Below are positions 14,108 to 29,474 of a stretch of 32,116 nucleotides of DNA, piece by piece. A program made the position numbers and the translations under genes. A model generated the notes under the pieces. That model searched no databases. It saw only the letters and a list, made by a program, of their open reading frames with translations, and had not been told where the DNA came from. The DNA is from a candidate division WOR-3 bacterium. Lineage in GTDB: Bacteria > Hydrothermota > Tepidihabitantia > Tepidihabitantales > Tepidihabitantaceae. The stretch lies in contig CBFGKH010000013.1 of the NCBI GenBank assembly GCA_965649295.1, positions 1 through 32,116 on the forward strand, read 5' to 3'. Each line of letters begins with the position of its first letter. Within the stretch, counting starts at the first letter, position 1.

Positions 14108-15321
14108 GTTGGTGAGCGAGTTCCCGAAGGGGTGTTCGGCCGAGTTTGTTTTTGAAAGAGGACACGCAGGGCCCGTTCATAGGCCTGGCTCATCTTAACC
14201 CCGCGTCGGCTCATTACCTGCCGAGCATTCTCGATTGCTACCGCGATCGGCCAGCGGGCCTTGGTTCCCCAAGCGAACGCCGGAATCTCTTTCGGAGACA
14301 GACCAGACTCAAACCAGTTGGCGAATGTGCCGACTCGTGTGCCGGTATTGAGTAATGTGCCAATGGCAGTCTTGGCGTGGTCACCGATGAAACAGCCGAC
14401 TTTGAGCAGACCTGAGTCAATAGGCTTGCCGTCAAAGAAGACCGACACTGGCTGGTATGAATTCTTCAGGTCAGAATTGGTCGTGAGGGCGCCGAGGTTT
14501 ACCCACTCGCCGACGAAGCTGTGACCGATGAATCCGCTGTGGTGTTTGTTTGAGTATCCCTGGAACACGCTTGACTCGACCTCGCCACCAATCCTGCATT
14601 GGGGGCCAAAGCTACAGCCAGGACGTACCTGCGCTCCATCAATAACCGTGCCTGGGCCAATATAACATGGTCCTTCAACAAAGCTGCCCGGCCGGATAAC
14701 AGCCAGACGATCGACAAATACCGGACCGGTTGCAGTCGAGATTACTGCCCCGGGCCAGAGTTCTGCCGTTTCGGCCAGGTGGAGCTTGCTTCTTGGTCCG
14801 ACTAAGGTTACACCTTTCGGCAGTCGTCGGGTGCTGGTAGCTGCTTTCTGGTTCTGGTTTCCTAGTTCGCGGCGAAGCTCGGCTGCGTTCCGTTCAATGA
14901 TGTCCCACGGCCACTGCATCAATCGTGCCCGGACTTGTTCTTCGGGCAATTCAGCTCGGAGAACCGCGTTTCTGGCCAACTGTTTCGCGTGCTCGGCGCC
15001 GATTCGGAATCCTACTACGTAATCATCGCAGAGTAGTACTGCATTGCGACCGTAGGGGGAGATCGGTTCGTCGAGGATTGCCCGCGCAGACAGCCAGAGT
15101 CGGCAGTTGGTGACCGGTTTGTTCACATAACAGTCAGGGTGGTTTTCGGCAGCAATTTCGGCCAGTTCATCACGCAGCCATAGGTTGAACTCTGTGGTTG
15201 GGTAGAAGCGGCGTAGCTTCTCGAGCAGAGTCAACCTTCCGCAGAGTATGTCGCATGTCGGTCTCAGGTCACACAGCGGCGATAGCCGAGCAACTTCGTC
15301 GTCCTCGTAGATGCAGATCAC
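14104..15321 (-). CDS. GlmU-related putative sugar nucleotidyltransferase/acetyltransferase with left-handed beta-helix
   Basis: N-terminal L.PL...RP..DI.CG..TL.EK; hexapeptide repeats; GGEVESSVFQGYSNKHHSGFIGHS.VGEWVNLGA.TTNSDLKN. Confidence 0.88.
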   Translation of the reverse strand: MICIYEDDEVARLSPLCDLRPTCDILCGRLTLLEKLRRFYPTTEFNLWLRDELAEIAAENHPDCYVNKPVTNCRLWLSARAILDEPISPYGRNAVLLCDDYVVGFRIGAEHAKQLARNAVLRAELPEEQVRARLMQWPWDIIERNAAELRRELGNQNQKAATSTRRLPKGVTLVGPRSKLHLAETAELWPGAVISTATGPVFVDRLAVIRPGSFVEGPCYIGPGTVIDGAQVRPGCSFGPQCRIGGEVESSVFQGYSNKHHSGFIGHSFVGEWVNLGALTTNSDLKNSYQPVSVFFDGKPIDSGLLKVGCFIGDHAKTAIGTLLNTGTRVGTFANWFESGLSPKEIPAFAWGTKARWPIAVAIENARQVMSRRGVKMSQAYERALRVLFQKQTRPNTPSGTRSPT

Positions 15322-16184: not shown

Positions 16185-18020
16185 CTATTTGCCGGTGTTA
16201 TAGACGTTTTTCATCCACTTGGGCCAGGCTGCACTCGCATCAAGGAGTTTGTCGGGATAGCCCTTCACGCAGTAGGTTGCCTGTTCACCAAGGACGATGA
16301 TGTTGCCGCGACCAGTGATCGTTGGTGAGGGTGTGATATCGGCGTCGGACAGCCGGCGAGCGCGTGGTGCTGAGCTGGGCAGAACCGCGGCGCAGTCACA
16401 CGTCCACTCGACGACACCGTTGTCCTGGCGGATGCAGTGGAGCTTATCGTCGTCGGTCTGTACATAGAGCAGTCCGCCAGTCACGATGATCGGCGCAGTT
16501 GATATTGCGTCGGTGAGAGTCCTCCGCCAGACAAGTGAACCGGATGTTGTCAGTGCGTAGAGTGTACCGATGTCAGTGCCAATAAATAGATACTGACCCA
16601 GTACAGGTCGCAAGCCGATACCGTCAAGAGTGTAGCTCCAGTTTACCGTCGGCGGATTCGTTGTGGGGTTGATGGAGTAAATCCGACGGGCATCGTTAGC
16701 GCAATAGATTGTACCGTCGTTGCCGAGTATCGGGCCATAGACCTCGCGAGCGCCAGGGAACTGGAGACGCCAGATGACCGTGTTGACGAGGTCATTCATC
16801 TTGTAGAGGTAGCCGGAGTCGGTACCAAAATAGACGTTACCGGCATTGTCCACAATCGGCGCATCGACGACCGAGGAGCCTAGATAGTATGGACCGCCAG
16901 CGACGACCGGTGCTTCATTGTCACCGCGATCAAGGAAGTAGTAGATGGCACCGGTACTTTCTTCCCGGCCAACGTAGATTTTGTTGCCGGATATGCAGGC
17001 GGGCCCGAATTCGTCGTAGGTGAGACTGTTGACTCCGCTGTCTGGCCAGTTCCACTTCCGGCTTGGGCCAGCACCTCTCAAGAAGTACAGTTCTCCTTCA
17101 TCAGAGCCAATGATGATATGTCCGTAGGATTCGAGATAGGCAGCATGGCCCGAGAACCAGGATTCTTCGGTTGAAACATATTTTGTCTGGACTCGACCAG
17201 CGCGGTCAGCAAACCGTCGGCTATTGACCTTGAGAGTGTAGAAGTAGAAATCGTCCTCGCAACTGGCGCCGACAACTGTGTCGGTTCCATTAAAGTAGAG
17301 GACTGGCGTTGTAACTAATGGCCAACCGTCGGCGTTCCACCAGTACCAGATAACACCGCCGGCTTCGCCGATACGTACGCTTACTGACTCAGGGTTCGAA
17401 ACCGCACCTTTCTTGTCCTTGGCATAGACTTTGATCCAGACTGTGCCAGTGTCTGTATAAGCGTAGGCAAGGCTGTCGGTGCTAGGGCTGGGTAGCCAGG
17501 TAGCTGAGCTGTCAGTCTTGTTTGACTTCCATTGGACGTAGATGCGCAGACTATCACCATTGGGGTCACGCGCCCAAGCCCGGACTGGCAGTTCCGCTTC
17601 CTTTGATGTGTAGCGCGATTCAACAGTCCAGATTGACTCAATTATTGGCGCGTCATTCTGAATCACGACGACTGACTTCGCTTCTGACCAGTCTGAAGCC
17701 TTGGCTGTGTTCTTGGCCAGCAGTGCCATTGCCTTAATCTGATACGTGCCTGCGACATTCCAGACGTGTCTGCCGCCGTACTGTGTGCCGCTTTCAACTG
17801 CGCCACTGGTGTCAATCTTGCCATCGCCCCAGTCGAAGACATATTGAATCTCACCGTTGGCAGTGGCTACGGTCGTATAAGTGGTATTTACTCCTGTCCA
17901 CGTTGTGTCTGGACCGGTTGGTTTTGCTGGGACTGTTGGCGGCTTGTCGCAACCGACCACGACCAGCAGTGTAAATGCTATGGCTATTGCTACCAATGCT
18001 GCGGTCTTGTTTTGGTTCAT
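16185..18020 (-). CDS. Lipoprotein with PKD/Ig-like domains and a PQQ-like (BamB-like) beta-propeller
   Basis: Lipobox LVVVG-C; YVFDWGDG..H.W..AGTY.IK (PKD); repeated P..D..G.VYFGT.SG.LY.....G...W blades; terminal WPKW..N..NTG; SD AGGAGG. Confidence 0.85.
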   Translation of the reverse strand: MNQNKTAALVAIAIAFTLLVVVGCDKPPTVPAKPTGPDTTWTGVNTTYTTVATANGEIQYVFDWGDGKIDTSGAVESGTQYGGRHVWNVAGTYQIKAMALLAKNTAKASDWSEAKSVVVIQNDAPIIESIWTVESRYTSKEAELPVRAWARDPNGDSLRIYVQWKSNKTDSSATWLPSPSTDSLAYAYTDTGTVWIKVYAKDKKGAVSNPESVSVRIGEAGGVIWYWWNADGWPLVTTPVLYFNGTDTVVGASCEDDFYFYTLKVNSRRFADRAGRVQTKYVSTEESWFSGHAAYLESYGHIIIGSDEGELYFLRGAGPSRKWNWPDSGVNSLTYDEFGPACISGNKIYVGREESTGAIYYFLDRGDNEAPVVAGGPYYLGSSVVDAPIVDNAGNVYFGTDSGYLYKMNDLVNTVIWRLQFPGAREVYGPILGNDGTIYCANDARRIYSINPTTNPPTVNWSYTLDGIGLRPVLGQYLFIGTDIGTLYALTTSGSLVWRRTLTDAISTAPIIVTGGLLYVQTDDDKLHCIRQDNGVVEWTCDCAAVLPSSAPRARRLSDADITPSPTITGRGNIIVLGEQATYCVKGYPDKLLDASAAWPKWMKNVYNTGK

Positions 18021-18041
18021 TAATGGCCTCCTGAAGGTCTG

Positions 18042-19073
18042 CTACTTGGTCACAACCGGGCCGTGAAAAGTACCTACTTCGGGCAGGCGGCAGGTGCCAC
18101 CGCGGCCGTCCTCGAAGTAGAAATAGTAGTCGTGCATTGAGCCGTACGGTAACCTAGTGCGATAGCTGTACTGGGCAAGACCGTTACGGCCGCTCCGCCG
18201 CGACATCTTGTGGGGAACGCCATCAATGTAGATGAGCGCGACAGCGGCGGGGTCGCCGTCAGCATCGCGGTAGTCAACGCGATAGCTGAAAGTCGATTTC
18301 GGCGAGCCAATTGTTGGGTCCTGGTTCGGGTCGAGCAGGACAGGTGGTTGGTTGGGCTGGCCATTCACCATTGGACCACGCAGAAAGCCTTTGGCCGGTA
18401 AGGTAACGCAGTCACCCTCACCGTCGTGGGCAACGAAATAGTAGGCGTGTGGTCCCGGCTCCAGCGTGGTCTGATAGAGATAAGTGCCGTTATTGGCCGT
18501 GCCCTTGTGCAGTTTCATCTGGTAGGGCACGCCATCGATGACCACTCGTACTGCCTGAGGTGGCTTGTCGTCATCCCGGTCGTGGTACTTCACTGTATAG
18601 GTGAAGATACTCTTGTCCGAGCCCTGTTCAAAGAAGACGCCGCCGTCAGTCAATACGGGTTGGCGATTGAGTGGCTGACGCGTACCAACAAATGGCCCGG
18701 CGATTGCTCCGTAACGAGGATAGCGTTCGCTGCCACCACGACCGTCTTCGGCATAGAAGTAGTAGTTGTGTTCGCCGGGCGGAAGAGTGAGTCGGGCGCG
18801 ATAGGTTCCTCGCGCAGCCTTGCCGCCGACGAGACGCATGGGGTAGGGTTGTCCGTTGATATAGACTTCGACCTTGGCCGGGACATCGCCGTCGGCGTCT
18901 TCATACTGGACCGTCGCCACATAGACGGTTTTGGTCGTACCGTTCATGGGCGTTATTGCCGGTTTGCACAGGCATGGATTGTTGTTTTCTGGACCGGCAA
19001 GCAGGGGTGCTGCCAGTAGTAGTGTTGCTAGAACAGCCGAGGCTGCCGCGAAAGCAGAATGCTTTGTGGGCAT
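18042..19073 (-). CDS. Secreted protein of three tandem ~105-aa Ig/cadherin-like repeats
   Basis: Signal peptide; 3x Y.D.DGD.P....V.IDG.P..M.......G.Y.....L..G.H.YYF...DG.G....P..G...GP.V; SD AGGAGGA. Confidence 0.85.
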   Translation of the reverse strand: MPTKHSAFAAASAVLATLLLAAPLLAGPENNNPCLCKPAITPMNGTTKTVYVATVQYEDADGDVPAKVEVYINGQPYPMRLVGGKAARGTYRARLTLPPGEHNYYFYAEDGRGGSERYPRYGAIAGPFVGTRQPLNRQPVLTDGGVFFEQGSDKSIFTYTVKYHDRDDDKPPQAVRVVIDGVPYQMKLHKGTANNGTYLYQTTLEPGPHAYYFVAHDGEGDCVTLPAKGFLRGPMVNGQPNQPPVLLDPNQDPTIGSPKSTFSYRVDYRDADGDPAAVALIYIDGVPHKMSRRSGRNGLAQYSYRTRLPYGSMHDYYFYFEDGRGGTCRLPEVGTFHGPVVTK

Positions 19074-19099
19074 TCTTCCTCCTTTGTCATCGCTCCGCC

Positions 19100-19128
19100 A
19101 TTATAGGTTTGTGCTGAGAAAGTGTCAA
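19100..19128 (-). promoter_or_regulatory. Perfect consensus sigma70 promoter of the repeat-protein/lipoprotein pair
   Basis: TTGACA (19128-19123), 17 bp, TATAAT (19105-19100). Confidence 0.85.
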
Positions 19129-19135
19129 GGTGAGT

Positions 19136-19248
19136 TGTCCGGGACTGGGGTTGATAAGTGTAGCTGACACCAAGAGTTTTGGACACCGATTGGCGCCGGT
19201 CGCTGCCGGCGCGGGTATATCCCGCTGGTCAGTGCAATACCCGGACAC
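19136..19248 (-). ncRNA. Candidate structured non-coding RNA or cis-regulatory leader, family unknown
   Basis: Terminal stem UGUCCGGG/CCCGGACA, inner CUGAC/GUCAG, hairpins GCGGG-AUAUA-CCCGC and GCCGG-CAGCGA-CCGGC; starts at the predicted +1 of a separate promoter. Confidence 0.5.
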
Positions 19249-19254
19249 TACAAC

Positions 19255-19282
19255 ATCTTAGCGTATCATGTCTGTCTGTCAA
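19255..19282 (-). promoter_or_regulatory. sigma70 promoter for the candidate ncRNA
   Basis: TTGACA (19282-19277), 16 bp, TAAGAT (19260-19255). Confidence 0.65.
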
Positions 19283-19390
19283 TCGCCGCGGACGCATCCA
19301 CCCACTGAGAGACTGGTTTCTAGTTCGGTAAGTAACAGACAGGTAGCAGGTCATCGGGGCTGACGCGACAACGAATGAGGTGACGGGAGG

Positions 19391-19418
19391 TTGACTTCCG
19401 GCCAGCTTCGGGTATTGT
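19391..19418 (+). promoter_or_regulatory. sigma70 promoter of rpsO-pnp
   Basis: TTGACT (19391-19396), 16 bp, TATTGT (19413-19418); SD GGAGG at 19438. Confidence 0.6.
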
Positions 19419-19452
19419 AGGTCGCAAATAATAATACGGAGGAAACACTGTC

Positions 19453-19722
19453 ATGCCACTGACAAAAGAGCAGAAGGGCCGATTGATTGAGGCTTATCGG
19501 TTGCACGGGTCAGATACCGGTTCGCCCGAGGTCCAGATTGCAATTCTCTCTGAGCGTATTGGGATGCTGACCGAGCATCTGAAAACGCACAAGAAGGATA
19601 AGCACTCGCGCCGCGGTTTGATAAAGCTCGTAAACGAACGGCGTCGCCATCTCGACTATCTGATTAAACACCACAAAGACCGCTACGAGAAAATCGTCAG
19701 CAGTCTCGGGCTGCGGGGCTAA
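19453..19722 (+). CDS. rpsO: 30S ribosomal protein S15
   Basis: [33 protein letters not shown]. Confidence 0.98.
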
Positions 19723-19723
19723 C

Positions 19724-21970
19724 GTGCACCGCGTCGAGCAAGTAGTGTGCGGCCGCACACTTTCCTTGGAGGTTGGTCGTGTGGCCAAACAAGCAGATGG
19801 CGGAGTGCTGGCTCGGTACGGCGATACGGTAATTCTGGCAAGTGCTTGCTATAGGAAAGAGTTGCCGACTGCGTATCAGGATTTTTTCCCGCTGACGGTT
19901 GATTACCGTGAGTTGGCCTACGCTGCCGGCAAGATACCAGGTGGTTTCTTCAAGCGTGAGGGGAAGCCGCGGGACAAGGAGACGCTTACCTGTCGGTTGA
20001 TTGATCGGCCGATTCGACCGCTATTCCCGCCGAACTTTCGCAACGAAACGCAGATTGTCGGTTTCCTCCTTTCGACCGATATGGAGAATGAGGGCGATTT
20101 TCTGGCACTAGTCGCCGCTTCCGCTGCTTTGCATGTCTCGGATATTCCCTTCCTGGGACCGATCGGTGCCTGCCGGGTGGGCAAGTTCGGCGACGAGTTT
20201 GTACTCAATCCGGCGATGAACCGTGAGGCCGAGGCCGACATGTGGATGATTTACGTCGGCGTTGGCGAGCAGGTGATGACGATTGCCGGCCAAGCTCGGG
20301 ATGCTTCGCCGGAGGATATCGACCGGGGCTGGGAGCTTGCTCTGCCGGTAATCAAGCAGACTATCGCTTTGCAGGAGGAGCTGCGGAGTCTGGCGGGTAA
20401 GCCGAAGCTAGTGATGGACAAGCCATTGGTGCCGCCAGAGCTGGCGGCGGATGTCAAGCGACTTGCGGCTGACAGGGTGAAGGCGGCGAATGACATTCAG
20501 GACAAACAAGCACGGGGAAAGGCCCGAACCGAACTCGCGAACGCTGTCATTGCCGAGCTGGCCGAGAAGTACCCGGACATGGACAAGGCAATCCGTGAGG
20601 TTCTTGATGAGATGACAGGTGCCGACATGCGACAACGGGTGCTTGGCAGTGGGGTACGACTCGATGGTCGCAAGGAGGACGAGGTGCGGCCAATTGAGTG
20701 CGCGGTTGGCGTGCTGCCCAGGACCCATGGCTCGGCGCTTTTCACTCGCGGCCAGACCCAGTCGCTGGCAGCAACAACTCTCGGCACCAAGCAGGATGAG
20801 CAGGTGATTGATGATGTGGAGCTGGAGATGGAGGAGAAGAAGTCGTTCATGCTCCACTACAATTTCCCACCGTTTTCGGTCGGGGAGGTGAAGTTCCTGC
20901 GTGGTCCGGGTCGGCGCGACATCGGTCACGGCGATCTGGCCGAGCGGGCCCTGGCAGCGGTTATGCCCCGCGAGGAGGAGTTTCCTTACACGGTGCGGGT
21001 GGTGTCGGATATTCTTGAGTCCAACGGGAGTTCCTCAATGGCCTCGGTCTGCGCTGGCTCTTTGTCGTTGATGGATGCCGGCGTACCGATTCGGGCAGCG
21101 GTTGCGGGAATGGCGATGGGACTCATTACCGACGGCGACCCGACCGTTTCCCTGGGAACAAGTCTCAGTCAAGGCGCCCAATACCGGATTGTGACCGACA
21201 TCATCGGTGACGAAGACCACTATGGCTATATGGACTTCAAGGTGGCGGGAACACGGCGGGGAATCACTGCCATCCAGCTCGACCTGAAGCTGCCGGGTGT
21301 TCCGTATACCGTGTTGGCTGAGGCGTTGCGGCGGGCAACAGTCGCTCGGCTGCATGTCTTGGACATAATGGACAGGACTCTTGATAAGCCGCGGCCGGAC
21401 ATCTCGCGGTACGCACCGCGAATCGTCTCGATTGTAATTGATAAGGAGAAGATCGGAACGGTCATCGGGCCCGGCGGCAAGATGATTCGGAAGATTACGG
21501 AGGAGACTGGCGCCAAGATTGACATCGAAGACGATGGTACGGTAACGATTGCCGCGACCAACCCAGATGCCCTTACTGCCGCCCGCGAGTGGATCGAGTC
21601 GCTCGTGGCTGAGGTTGAGGTCGGCAAGCTCTACTACGGGATGGTAACCCGGTTGATGAACTTCGGTGCGTTTGTCGAGATTCTGCCTGGCAAAGAAGGG
21701 TTGATTCACATCTCGCAGCTTGGCCCGGAGCGCTACAACCGGGTTGAGGATGCGGTGAAGGTTGGCGACAAGGTCTGGGTCAAGGTCGTCGAGATTGACG
21801 AGCTCGGAAGAGTCAATCTCTCACGCCGCAAGGCGATGGAGGAACGAGGCGAGATCCCGCCTTCTGATGATTCTGGCCGGGCCGACCGACCACCCCGGCG
21901 GAGCGGTCCGCCCCGTGGCGGCCGGGAGCGCGACCGGGACCGGCGGGACCGACGCGGACAACGCCGGTAG
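19724..21970 (+). CDS. pnp: Polyribonucleotide nucleotidyltransferase (PNPase)
   Basis: FFPLTVDYRE, GKIPGGFFKREG, RLIDRPIRPLF, HGSALFTRGQTQ, ESNGSSSMAS, MDFKVAGT, KH (IGPGGKMI) and S1 domains. Confidence 0.98.
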   Translation: MHRVEQVVCGRTLSLEVGRVAKQADGGVLARYGDTVILASACYRKELPTAYQDFFPLTVDYRELAYAAGKIPGGFFKREGKPRDKETLTCRLIDRPIRPLFPPNFRNETQIVGFLLSTDMENEGDFLALVAASAALHVSDIPFLGPIGACRVGKFGDEFVLNPAMNREAEADMWMIYVGVGEQVMTIAGQARDASPEDIDRGWELALPVIKQTIALQEELRSLAGKPKLVMDKPLVPPELAADVKRLAADRVKAANDIQDKQARGKARTELANAVIAELAEKYPDMDKAIREVLDEMTGADMRQRVLGSGVRLDGRKEDEVRPIECAVGVLPRTHGSALFTRGQTQSLAATTLGTKQDEQVIDDVELEMEEKKSFMLHYNFPPFSVGEVKFLRGPGRRDIGHGDLAERALAAVMPREEEFPYTVRVVSDILESNGSSSMASVCAGSLSLMDAGVPIRAAVAGMAMGLITDGDPTVSLGTSLSQGAQYRIVTDIIGDEDHYGYMDFKVAGTRRGITAIQLDLKLPGVPYTVLAEALRRATVARLHVLDIMDRTLDKPRPDISRYAPRIVSIVIDKEKIGTVIGPGGKMIRKITEETGAKIDIEDDGTVTIAATNPDALTAAREWIESLVAEVEVGKLYYGMVTRLMNFGAFVEILPGKEGLIHISQLGPERYNRVEDAVKVGDKVWVKVVEIDELGRVNLSRRKAMEERGEIPPSDDSGRADRPPRRSGPPRGGRERDRDRRDRRGQRR

Positions 21971-27182: not shown

Positions 27183-28283
27183 GTGGTTGATATTCGAATA
27201 ACGAGAATGGCAATGACTATTGCTCGGTATAGCCTAGCGCTGCAACCGGGCGAGCAGGTGCTGGTTCTTGCGACTGTACCGGCAATGCCGCTGGTGCGCG
27301 AGTTTTTCCGGGTAGCTCTTGAGGCCGGAGCGCTGCCGGTCGTGCGGACAATGCATCCCGAACTGGAGGAGCTACTCTACCGTTATGGCACGGATGAACA
27401 AGTGCGGTTTGTGCCGGCTGCTGAGCGGCTCGACATCGAGACCTGTCAGGCACGGCTGGCAATCCGCGGTGAGGATAATCTCGCCACCCTCGCGGGAATC
27501 GCACCAGCGCGGCTGGCAATCGGCCGCCAGGCCCGTAAGCCGCTGCTCGATATCTTTATGGAGCGAAAAGGCCGGGGCGAGCTGAAGACCTGCCTGACCC
27601 AGTATCCGACTAATGCCAGTGCGCAGCAGGCAGGAATGTCGCTTGCGGACTACGCAGACTTTGTCTTTGCCGCCTGTTTCTGCGACCGACCGGACCCGAT
27701 TCAGGCCTGGCAGCAGCTTTCCCGAGAACAGCAACGCTACGTTGAGCTACTTGCTGGCGTGCGAAATATCCGCATCGAAGGGCCGGGTACCGACCTTTCA
27801 CTTTCAGTGGCGGGCCGGAGATGGATCAATTCGGACGGCCGGGCAAACTTTCCGTCCGGCGAGGTCTTTACCGGTCCGATTGAAGATTCGGCGGACGGCC
27901 GGATAACTTTCGACGTGCCGACGCTTTTCAGCGGTCAACTCGTCGAGGGGATTGAGCTTGAGTTCCGAGCCGGCCGGGTAGTTGCCGCTCGGGCAAATCG
28001 TGGCGAGGCGATGCTCAGCAGTGCTCTTGACACCGATGAGCGAAGCCGTTACCTGGGTGAGTTTGCCTTTGGGCTGAACTACGCTATCCGGCGGCCGACC
28101 GGCAACATTCTCTTTGACGAGAAGATTGGCGGAACCATCCATCTTGCCATTGGTGCTGGCTATCCTGAGACTGGCAGCACCAACCGCTCGGGCATCCATT
28201 GGGATATGATCAAGGACATGAAGCAGGGTCGGGTCGTAGCTGACGGCAAGGTGGTGTACGAGAACGGAAGGTTCAAGGAATGA
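27183..28283 (+). CDS. Aminopeptidase, M29 family (AmpT/PepS-like), paralog 1
   Basis: NFPSGEVFTGP, LGEFAFG.N, NILFDEKIGGTIHLAIG..YP, SGIHWDMI. Confidence 0.94.
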   Translation: MVDIRITRMAMTIARYSLALQPGEQVLVLATVPAMPLVREFFRVALEAGALPVVRTMHPELEELLYRYGTDEQVRFVPAAERLDIETCQARLAIRGEDNLATLAGIAPARLAIGRQARKPLLDIFMERKGRGELKTCLTQYPTNASAQQAGMSLADYADFVFAACFCDRPDPIQAWQQLSREQQRYVELLAGVRNIRIEGPGTDLSLSVAGRRWINSDGRANFPSGEVFTGPIEDSADGRITFDVPTLFSGQLVEGIELEFRAGRVVAARANRGEAMLSSALDTDERSRYLGEFAFGLNYAIRRPTGNILFDEKIGGTIHLAIGAGYPETGSTNRSGIHWDMIKDMKQGRVVADGKVVYENGRFKE

Positions 28284-28370
28284 AATCTCAATACTTCAGT
28301 CTTAGTAGCCCGGCTGGTGCTAGCCGGCACCAGCGGCTGGGCAACCGGACACTAACAACGGAGGTGAATT

Positions 28371-29474
28371 ATGGTTGATGCAAGAGTCGAGAAGCTGGCA
28401 AAGGTGCTGGTGAACTACAGTCTGGCTGTCAAACCCAAGCAGTGGGTAAGGATTGACGGGTCAGCTCAGGCTGCGCCGCTAATCACGGCTGCTTATGTCG
28501 AGGTGTTGAAGGCCGGGGCATATCCGATGCCGCGTGTTTCCCTGCCGGGGCTGTCTTTTCTGGGAATGAAGTATGCGAATGAGGATCAACTCCGGTTTGT
28601 GCCGCCGACCCAGAAGCTTGAGACTGAGCGGCTTGATGCCAGCCTTTCAATTTGGGGCGGCACCAATACTAAGGAGATGACCAATGTTGACCCGAAGAAA
28701 ATGGCAATCGCGCGAGCTGCGAGCCGGCCGATATTCAACCGGTTCTTGAAGCGGATTGGTGATGGCAGCCTGCGTTGGTGCGGAACGCAGTTTCCGACCG
28801 AGGCTTCAGCCCAGGATGCCGAGATGTCGCTCTTTGAGTATCAGGATTTTGTCTATGGTGCGGGGATGCTGGACAAGAAGGACCCAGTGGCGGAATGGCA
28901 GCGGGTCTCGGCGCGGCAGGCGAAGATGGTAGAGTTCCTTGGCCGGCTGCGAACAATCCGAATTGTGGGGCCAGATACCGACCTGACGTTCAATGTTGCT
29001 GGTCGAAAGTGGATAAACTGCGATGGTCATGAGAACTTCCCGGACGGCGAGGGTTTCACTGGCCCGGTCGAGAGCTCAGCCGAAGGGCACATCCGCTATA
29101 CATTCCCGGCCGTTTATGGCGGCAAGGAGGTGCAGAACGTCCGGCTTTGGTTCAAGCAGGGTCGGGTTGTCGAGGCAAAGGCCGACAAGGGCGAGGATTA
29201 CCTGAGTTCGGTGTTAGAGACTGACACAGGTGCGCGTTATGTTGGCGAGCTGGCCTTTGGCACCAACTACGCAATCACCCGTTTCACCAAGAACACCCTC
29301 TTCGACGAGAAGATTGGCGGTACGATGCACATTGCACTTGGTGCTTCGCTGCCCGAGTCTGGCGGTAGGAACAAGTCGGCGGTCCATTGGGATATGGTTT
29401 GCGATACGCGCAACGGCTTCACTGTCTATGGTGACGGCCGGCCAATAATGAAGGACGGCAAGTGGCTTGGGTAG
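28371..29474 (+). CDS. Aminopeptidase, M29 family, paralog 2
   Basis: NFPDGEGFTGP, VGELAFGTN, TLFDEKIGGTMHIALG, SAVHWDMV; SD GGAGGTG. Confidence 0.94.
   Translation: MVDARVEKLAKVLVNYSLAVKPKQWVRIDGSAQAAPLITAAYVEVLKAGAYPMPRVSLPGLSFLGMKYANEDQLRFVPPTQKLETERLDASLSIWGGTNTKEMTNVDPKKMAIARAASRPIFNRFLKRIGDGSLRWCGTQFPTEASAQDAEMSLFEYQDFVYGAGMLDKKDPVAEWQRVSARQAKMVEFLGRLRTIRIVGPDTDLTFNVAGRKWINCDGHENFPDGEGFTGPVESSAEGHIRYTFPAVYGGKEVQNVRLWFKQGRVVEAKADKGEDYLSSVLETDTGARYVGELAFGTNYAITRFTKNTLFDEKIGGTMHIALGASLPESGGRNKSAVHWDMVCDTRNGFTVYGDGRPIMKDGKWLG

Follow-up and report, generated by a model that had tools for sequence, protein, structure and literature searches.

A structured leader upstream of an Ig-repeat gene in a candidate division WOR-3 bacterium, best read as carrying a leaderless, translationally coupled upstream ORF

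Introduction

Leaderless small ORFs that are translationally coupled to the following gene have been described in mycobacteria. They start with RTG at +1 of the transcript and end in an RTGA overlap, and their linkage and initiation are conserved while their peptides are not, as reported in PMC4633059. In the polycysteine leaderless attenuators, for example Ms5788A, a GUG-initiated small ORF lies in a strongly folded leader that controls the next gene (bioRxiv 10.1101/834739). Translational coupling can proceed by unfolding of the RNA or by re-initiation (PMC12548453), and a parallel joining riboswitch, uORF and Rho appears in PMC12810186. Leaderless initiation is limited by the accessibility of the start, and a buried GUG should initiate poorly (PMC8459731). 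Our literature search, with most subscription journals outside its range, found no report on WOR-3 that deals with leaderless translation or with motifs of non-coding RNA.

The window analysed here, a stretch of 32,116 nt, is contig C13 of the 2.28-Mb genome (G000; 100% complete by markers) of a WOR-3 bacterium. A 380-bp gap separates rpsO-pnp (plus strand, from 19453) from a 343-aa gene (minus strand, start at 19073), whose protein has its nearest Atlas cluster mostly in candidate division WOR-3. A sequence-only reading had proposed in this gap a novel structured RNA of about 113 nt, either stand-alone and 6S-like or a riboswitch-like leader on an alternative transcript. We lean towards a different account, in which the fold would be the 5' leader of an mRNA from the upstream promoter P1, with a leaderless uORF coupled to the 343-aa gene, and in which the job of the uORF would be to deliver ribosomes and not to make a peptide.

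Results

Both minus-strand promoters that had been picked out by eye are present. The upstream one, P1 (TTGACA-16-TAAGAT), occupies 19282-19255 and has a predicted +1 at 19248 (or 19249), derived from promoter spacing; the inner one, P2 (TTGACA-17-TATAAT, 19128-19100), is the usual promoter of the main gene across the order. Five promoter-like sites fall within 18000-20500, compared with 1.1 ± 1.0 in shuffles, and near-consensus sigma70 promoters are abundant throughout the genome, mostly with 16-nt spacers (362 of 563 sites). An inverted repeat of 10 bp with one mismatch (19342-19333 / 19281-19272) overlaps the -35 of P1 with its second arm. The rpsO promoter (19391-19452, plus strand) gives a leader of only about 28 nt, which has no Rfam match and is presumably too short for S15 autoregulatory structures.

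The main gene (18042..19073, minus strand) is found in 43 of 44 family genomes and in 56 of 251 phylum genomes, almost all of one order. A PQQ-type beta-propeller gene (16185..18020, minus strand) is likely co-transcribed with it, and the 13-bp hairpin directly after this second gene (16170-16139, minus strand, no U-tract) is a probable terminator or processing stem. Further along, a hairpin followed by a T-run (15364-15339, minus strand) overlaps the -35 of the promoter for a 405-aa nucleotidyltransferase-like gene, and two tandem M29 metallopeptidase genes lie at 27183-29474 (plus strand).

Upstream regions were read in 40 of the 43 family genomes with the gene, three having no upstream DNA and one more being too short. 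Of 14 metagenome loci, 13 were read, and three of these proved too short. A P1-type promoter (TTGACA, 16 nt, then TAAGAT, TAACAT or TATCAT) precedes the main gene in 16 of these 40 genomes; with a second copy in genome G045 and the metagenome locus L110, this gives 18 P1 loci in six lineages. It should be mentioned that the search pattern was composed after inspection of the loci, the start codon discussed below forming no part of it, and that L093, a 17-spacer site within an upstream ORF, was excluded. The P1 loci are kin, 11 of the 18 coming from one genus, and the effective sample is about 3-6, not 18. Among the 19 loci read in other families, one of them too short, the tandem P1/P2 layout is absent. 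A protein tree of 38 rows moderately supports genus g9 as the neighbour of this genome (88/86), and the other P1 lineages are scattered in it. Logan assemblies contain two near-identical proteins, a lead to genomes of the same genus. G045 holds two diverged gene copies (L080, L107), each with a full P1 leader, reflecting a paralogue or bin contamination (5%). At L076, L111 and L123, which have no P1, long leaders of ~80-140 nt lie downstream of P2.

The distance from +1 to the P2 position varies from 40 to 148 nt among the P1 loci. At all three g10-type loci P2 has decayed and the main gene is intact, so the P1 transcript probably reads through to it. The claim that the downstream genes are independent of the P1 transcript therefore fails in genus g10.

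The RNA from 19248 to 19136 is predicted to fold at -43.2 kcal/mol (z -2.77), and none of 200 shuffles does equally well. The terminal helix drawn in the sequence-only reading (19247-19240 with 19143-19136) is recovered with a pair probability of ~1.0, the outermost pair having 0.62, and four extra pairs (19238-19235 with 19147-19144, p 0.84-0.9) complete a 5'-closing helix spanning 19136..19247 on the minus strand. Through these added pairs the asymmetric bubble, which is indeed present, is smaller than drawn, with 2 nt opposite 16 nt. The two adjacent GC-rich hairpins (19195..19225, minus strand) also reappear, at 19225-19211 and 19210-19195 (p 0.83-0.93). The proposed CUGAC/GUCAG helix is predicted with a p of only ~0.49, and its CCAG/UUGG extension is missing from the MFE structure. 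As had been stated, the minus strand has no U-tract terminator.

By itself the z-score is unexceptional, because 4 of 60 leaderless-gene 5' ends in the same genome have z <= -2.7. The burial of the first 10 nt is rare: equal pairing is found in 3 of 122 leaderless genes, and equal long-range pairing in 2 of 122. The closing helix buries the GUG at the predicted 5' end and can form only once ~110 nt have been transcribed, the 5' end being predicted to stay partly open until about nt 110-120.

Genus g9 has 11 copies of the leader with 72% identity and no indels. Their consensus fold has a z of -2.4 against column shuffles, with the sense strand better, and a structure-conservation index (SCI) of 0.52. 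A structure consisting of the closing helix over GUG and internal hairpins has 91.7% of its cells paired, versus 36-51% when it is slid along the alignment, in a register selected after seeing the data; an earlier register, with two helices offset, was no better than shuffles. The equivalent closing helix is 96% paired in g9. Seven of 34 g9 pairs are altered on both sides, and covariation exceeds that of shuffles by a modest margin (four measures give 14-43 of 500, and one gives 245 of 500). A closing helix is also predicted in L110, L065 and L071, with one compensatory and two wobble changes, by eye, between this genome and L110, and 5'-end burial recurs across several lineages. On these models RNA structure is likely present in the g9 leaders and in the leader studied here. 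The fold could instead have arisen by chance, from the GC-rich DNA that lies between the two promoters: the control 5' ends include some as good, the opposite strand is more stable (-51.9) and the g9 SCI is only 0.52. We give this reading very little credence, in view of the pairing that is lost when the g9 structure is slid, the sense-strand consensus and the recurrent burial of the 5' end.

The Rfam check assigned no family to the element. Within the window Rfam finds only 23S rRNA, apart from a chance SECIS_3 match (15.7 bits, cut-off 63), and 12 related loci gave one chance miRNA match and no relevant one. 6S RNA, SRP, RNase P, tmRNA and tRNA-Sec are encoded elsewhere in the genome. 6S RNA binds the sigma70 holoenzyme and templates pRNA. 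The element resembles it in its paired ends and internal loop but measures 113 nt, not ~180 nt, and is branched with a one-sided 2x16 loop, whereas 6S is a long rod of ~160-190 nt with a central two-sided bubble; the region has no match to 6S (RF00013) at E<=10, and the genuine copy is on contig C1 (50.9 bits). YrlA and other bacterial Y RNAs share with the element paired ends, stacked hairpins and a nearby pnp, which here merely follows rpsO. No Ro60 (TROVE) gene was found (0 matches in the 100%-complete genome), and the tRNA-like module of YrlA has no Rfam or ARAGORN match here, the hairpin loops lacking a D-loop and the consensus T-loop motif. An attC site was rejected because the ends do not fit the attC motif, and a repeat or MITE because the element is single-copy.

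A DNA search of 61 genomes yielded no close sequence match, only matches of 15-36 nt, and searches of 44 and 40 family genomes with models derived from the element gave no significant copy other than next to the downstream gene. The single-sequence model R1 gave two matches at E 0.13-0.14 in 44 genomes, and the g9 model R2 finds g9 only and misses the copy in this genome. Leader similarity across genera is weak: most of 17 pairs compared are not significant, and the best one, G000-L110, has a local z of 4.5. Together with the blindness of the g9 model to this copy, this indicates that homology across genera is positional and architectural. The proposed collection of rpsO-upstream regions covered 15 of 30 loci (minus-strand loci were skipped and one was too short), and by eye the 14 other plus-strand regions showed no such element; a link to rpsO was rejected.

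With the canonical 6S elsewhere and no copy away from the downstream gene, the proposal of a stand-alone or 6S-like RNA is not borne out. A discrete small RNA of ~113 nt that acts in trans, either stand-alone or terminated by Rho and 3'-trimmed to the closing helix, would draw on the element's own promoter, its closed ends and z-score, and the length and several helices kept within g9. Rho is present in the genome and a C-rich stretch (26 C, 12 G) follows the element; the strong hairpin at the operon end likewise has no U-tract, so the missing U-tract at the element proves little. We nevertheless hold such an RNA to be rather unlikely, as the element is found only upstream of the same gene, varies several-fold in length between loci that are barely alignable between genera, and in g10 must be read through if the intact main gene is to be expressed after loss of P2.

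The predicted +1 coincides with a GTG, at offset 6 from the P1 -10, which opens a 53-codon frame closed by a TGA at 19089-19087 (uORF, 19248-19087, minus strand; peptide P0001). This uORF traverses the fold and P2 and ends in an ATGA overlap (19090-19087) 13 nt before the main gene. Start codons of ORFs of at least 100 codons peak 5-9 nt after -10 boxes genome-wide, and of 579 promoter-like sites, 121 are followed at offset 5-7 by the start of a long ORF, a strong signature of leaderless initiation in the host. Among 190 exact TTGACA promoters, 16 have a GTG at offset 6, ten of them heading long ORFs, and each of the other offsets has 0-6. The 405-aa gene at 15321 in the window has the same leaderless GTG layout, and apparent leaderless genes are also seen in the relatives L011, L021, L025 and L155.

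An ATG or GTG stands at offset 5-7 of P1 at all 18 loci and in all six lineages, with +1 predicted from spacing; the P2 promoters of this gene have one in 3 of 36 cases, and the remaining promoter-like sites in 32 of 362. These 32 other G000 sites have short leaderless ORFs, a few of which end within 4 nt of a downstream start, and their share is not above background. In g9 the uORF frame contains no stop-bearing position over 59 codons in 11 copies, and each of the five alternative frames has 4-9; when the consensus is kept constant, 0 stops compare with 4.55 expected (P=0.005), the other frames being unremarkable. Frames this long have a chance of 11-24% per lineage, and of 13% in this genome alone. 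Where the uORF stop lies upstream of the main gene it is ATGA at 15 of 16 loci and TTGA at one, and ATGA occurs near the SD at 15 of 17 loci with P1 but at only 4 of 28 that lack it, in a pattern count that misses L086 and a few other loci. Counted against the uORF reading, stop-like triplets are common in the A-rich stretch ahead of the SD. At 14 of the 18 loci the chain of start and overlap leads into the main ORF in frame; at three, including this genome, it passes over the main start, and at one it falls 20 nt short. The frame restarted at ATGA differs from that of the main gene in this genome and in G049; here it opens a 20-codon ORF (19028..19090, minus strand) that runs over the SD, the main start codon and the start hairpin.

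The uORF peptide seems barely constrained, if at all, with a pN/pS of 0.82 and no bias by codon position. Four uORF peptides, P0001 included, have no Pfam match, and the three searched exactly in the protein collection, P0001 among them, are absent from it. A conserved functional peptide was rejected on these grounds. Across the P1 loci the frame and its linkage are conserved and the peptide is not. The promoters, the frame with its conservation, the ATGA overlap and the predicted folds can all be read directly from the genomes compared, and they suggest that the element is probably translated and not non-coding.

The leader might alternatively sense a ligand or an amino acid, as a riboswitch or a Cys-sensing leader peptide. 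Of the riboswitch-like leader proposed earlier, the leader part stands, whereas ligand binding does not, no core being common across genera; no known Rfam aptamer occurs in the window or the 12 related loci. A Cys codon at uORF position 5-7 in five of six lineages, noticed post hoc, the invariance of the 5' nucleotides within g9, and an alternative 5' hairpin that competes with the closing helix are compatible with attenuation. We consider it quite improbable nonetheless: the Cys codons number just one or two, L069, L107 and L071 have none at that position, the downstream gene is outside sulfur metabolism, and no pairing between leader and SD is predicted. A polycysteine attenuator in the strict sense needs at least two consecutive Cys codons and a cysteine-related target, and was rejected, since the two Cys of P0001 are separate and the target is an Ig-repeat gene; a consecutive Cys pair occurs only in L065 and L110.

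The main protein is modelled with an N-terminal signal-like helix and three Ig-like beta-sandwich repeats (pLDDT 82.6; a single-sequence model is poor, at 42.5), and this model has fold matches to tandem Ig domains. It probably resides at the cell surface. The leader could alternatively be an untranslated, 5'-closed structure whose only role is to make the P1 mRNA more stable, in the service of an abundant surface protein, with the GTG and the frame incidental. This possibility, framed by analogy with S-layer mRNAs, agrees with the unusually buried 5' end, with the closing helix kept in g9 and predicted in three other loci, and with a gene encoding a secreted Ig-repeat protein, and stabilisation is compatible with the uORF reading as a second role. 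As the sole explanation it is unlikely, as it leaves unexplained the start codons at +1, the avoidance of stops and the ATGA overlaps; moreover, the short leaders L086 and L087 have no closing helix and still retain the start codon.

The Shine-Dalgarno (SD) of the main gene (19083-19078) and its AUG are predicted to be buried in both P1 and P2 transcripts by a hairpin at 19082-19050 (SD and hairpin together 19050..19083, minus strand). The stability of this fold is matched by 11 of 237 SD-led starts and its pairing by 20 of 237. In 39 family sequences the register of the start-codon hairpin is 85.9% paired, a value reached by 1 of 500 shuffles; the register was drawn by hand, and RNAalifold yielded no consensus pairs for the start hairpin. 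Family-wide, the pairing of SD and AUG equals that of controls, with a mean unpaired value of 0.47 in both. Loci that lack P1 have the hairpin too and must open it in another way, and this counts against the uORF reading. It is noted that the SD and first 11 codons (19083-19030, minus strand, and orthologues) show unusual nucleotide conservation across the family, codon choice included, and could be a putative protein- or RNA-binding site. In genera without P1 (L092, L115, L124-L131, L133) the short P2 leader carries the motif GCTGC, which could pair with a GCAGC in codons 9-11 and so may lengthen the start hairpin.

Discussion

The uORF reading that we favour can be laid out as a sequence of steps, in which we infer the +1, translation, coupling, gating and the role of Rho. 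P1 would start the RNA at the G of GUG, and a ribosome would load on the open 5' end before the closing strand (~nt 102-113) is made. It would then translate across the leader and the P2 region, covering the RNA against Rho, and stop at the AUGA at the foot of the main-start hairpin, where it may open the hairpin or re-initiate. If loading is slow, the closing helix would form, bury the GUG, block further loading and probably shield the 5' end. P2 would yield a short-leader mRNA that lacks the uORF route. The expectation that a buried GUG initiates poorly (PMC8459731) weighs against the uORF reading.

In a more elaborate and unlikely version, the 3' strand of the RNA would act as a kinetic lock on the leaderless start: an early ribosome would lead to a translated, coupled mRNA, and otherwise Rho would release a stable RNA of 113-145 nt, possibly acting in trans. 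If such a switch existed, P1 output would report leaderless-initiation capacity.

The analysis recasts a candidate small RNA as a testable cis-element. It also points, from sequence alone, to widespread leaderless translation in an uncultured WOR-3 bacterium. The 18 natural variants, in which ribosome passage would be kept while leader length, fold and peptide vary, bear on the question of uORFs that exist only for ribosome delivery. In scans of leaderless-rich genomes, a promoter followed by a fold that begins with RTG should be checked for a uORF.

S-layer mRNAs have stabilising 5' leaders, with tandem promoters, a 5'-closed leader and a surface protein as product. The WOR-3 locus is like them in all these features and differs in its leaderless uORF, a feature that is not known from S-layer mRNA leaders. 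The coupling described in PMC12548453 is similar in that an upstream stop lies near a hairpin-hidden start with a -4 NTGA overlap; here, however, the upstream partner is a dispensable uORF on one of two transcripts. Compared with Ms5788A, as described in bioRxiv 10.1101/834739, the leader has no polycysteine run and no SD pairing, and the target lies outside cysteine metabolism.

The mycobacterial small ORFs, as PMC4633059 describes them, share with this locus an RTG at the predicted +1, a short ORF before a conserved gene and an RTGA overlap, here ATGA, which is in frame with the main ORF in most relatives and not in this genome. In contrast to them, the uORF belongs to another phylum (WOR-3) and runs through a second promoter, a long-range helix buries its GUG, and the restart at the overlap lies ahead of a start that has its own SD and, here, another frame. 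New in this locus are the helix that buries the start and the overlap of the uORF with a second promoter. On the best reading, the element works like a coupled leaderless uORF, a class membership predicted from its sequence.
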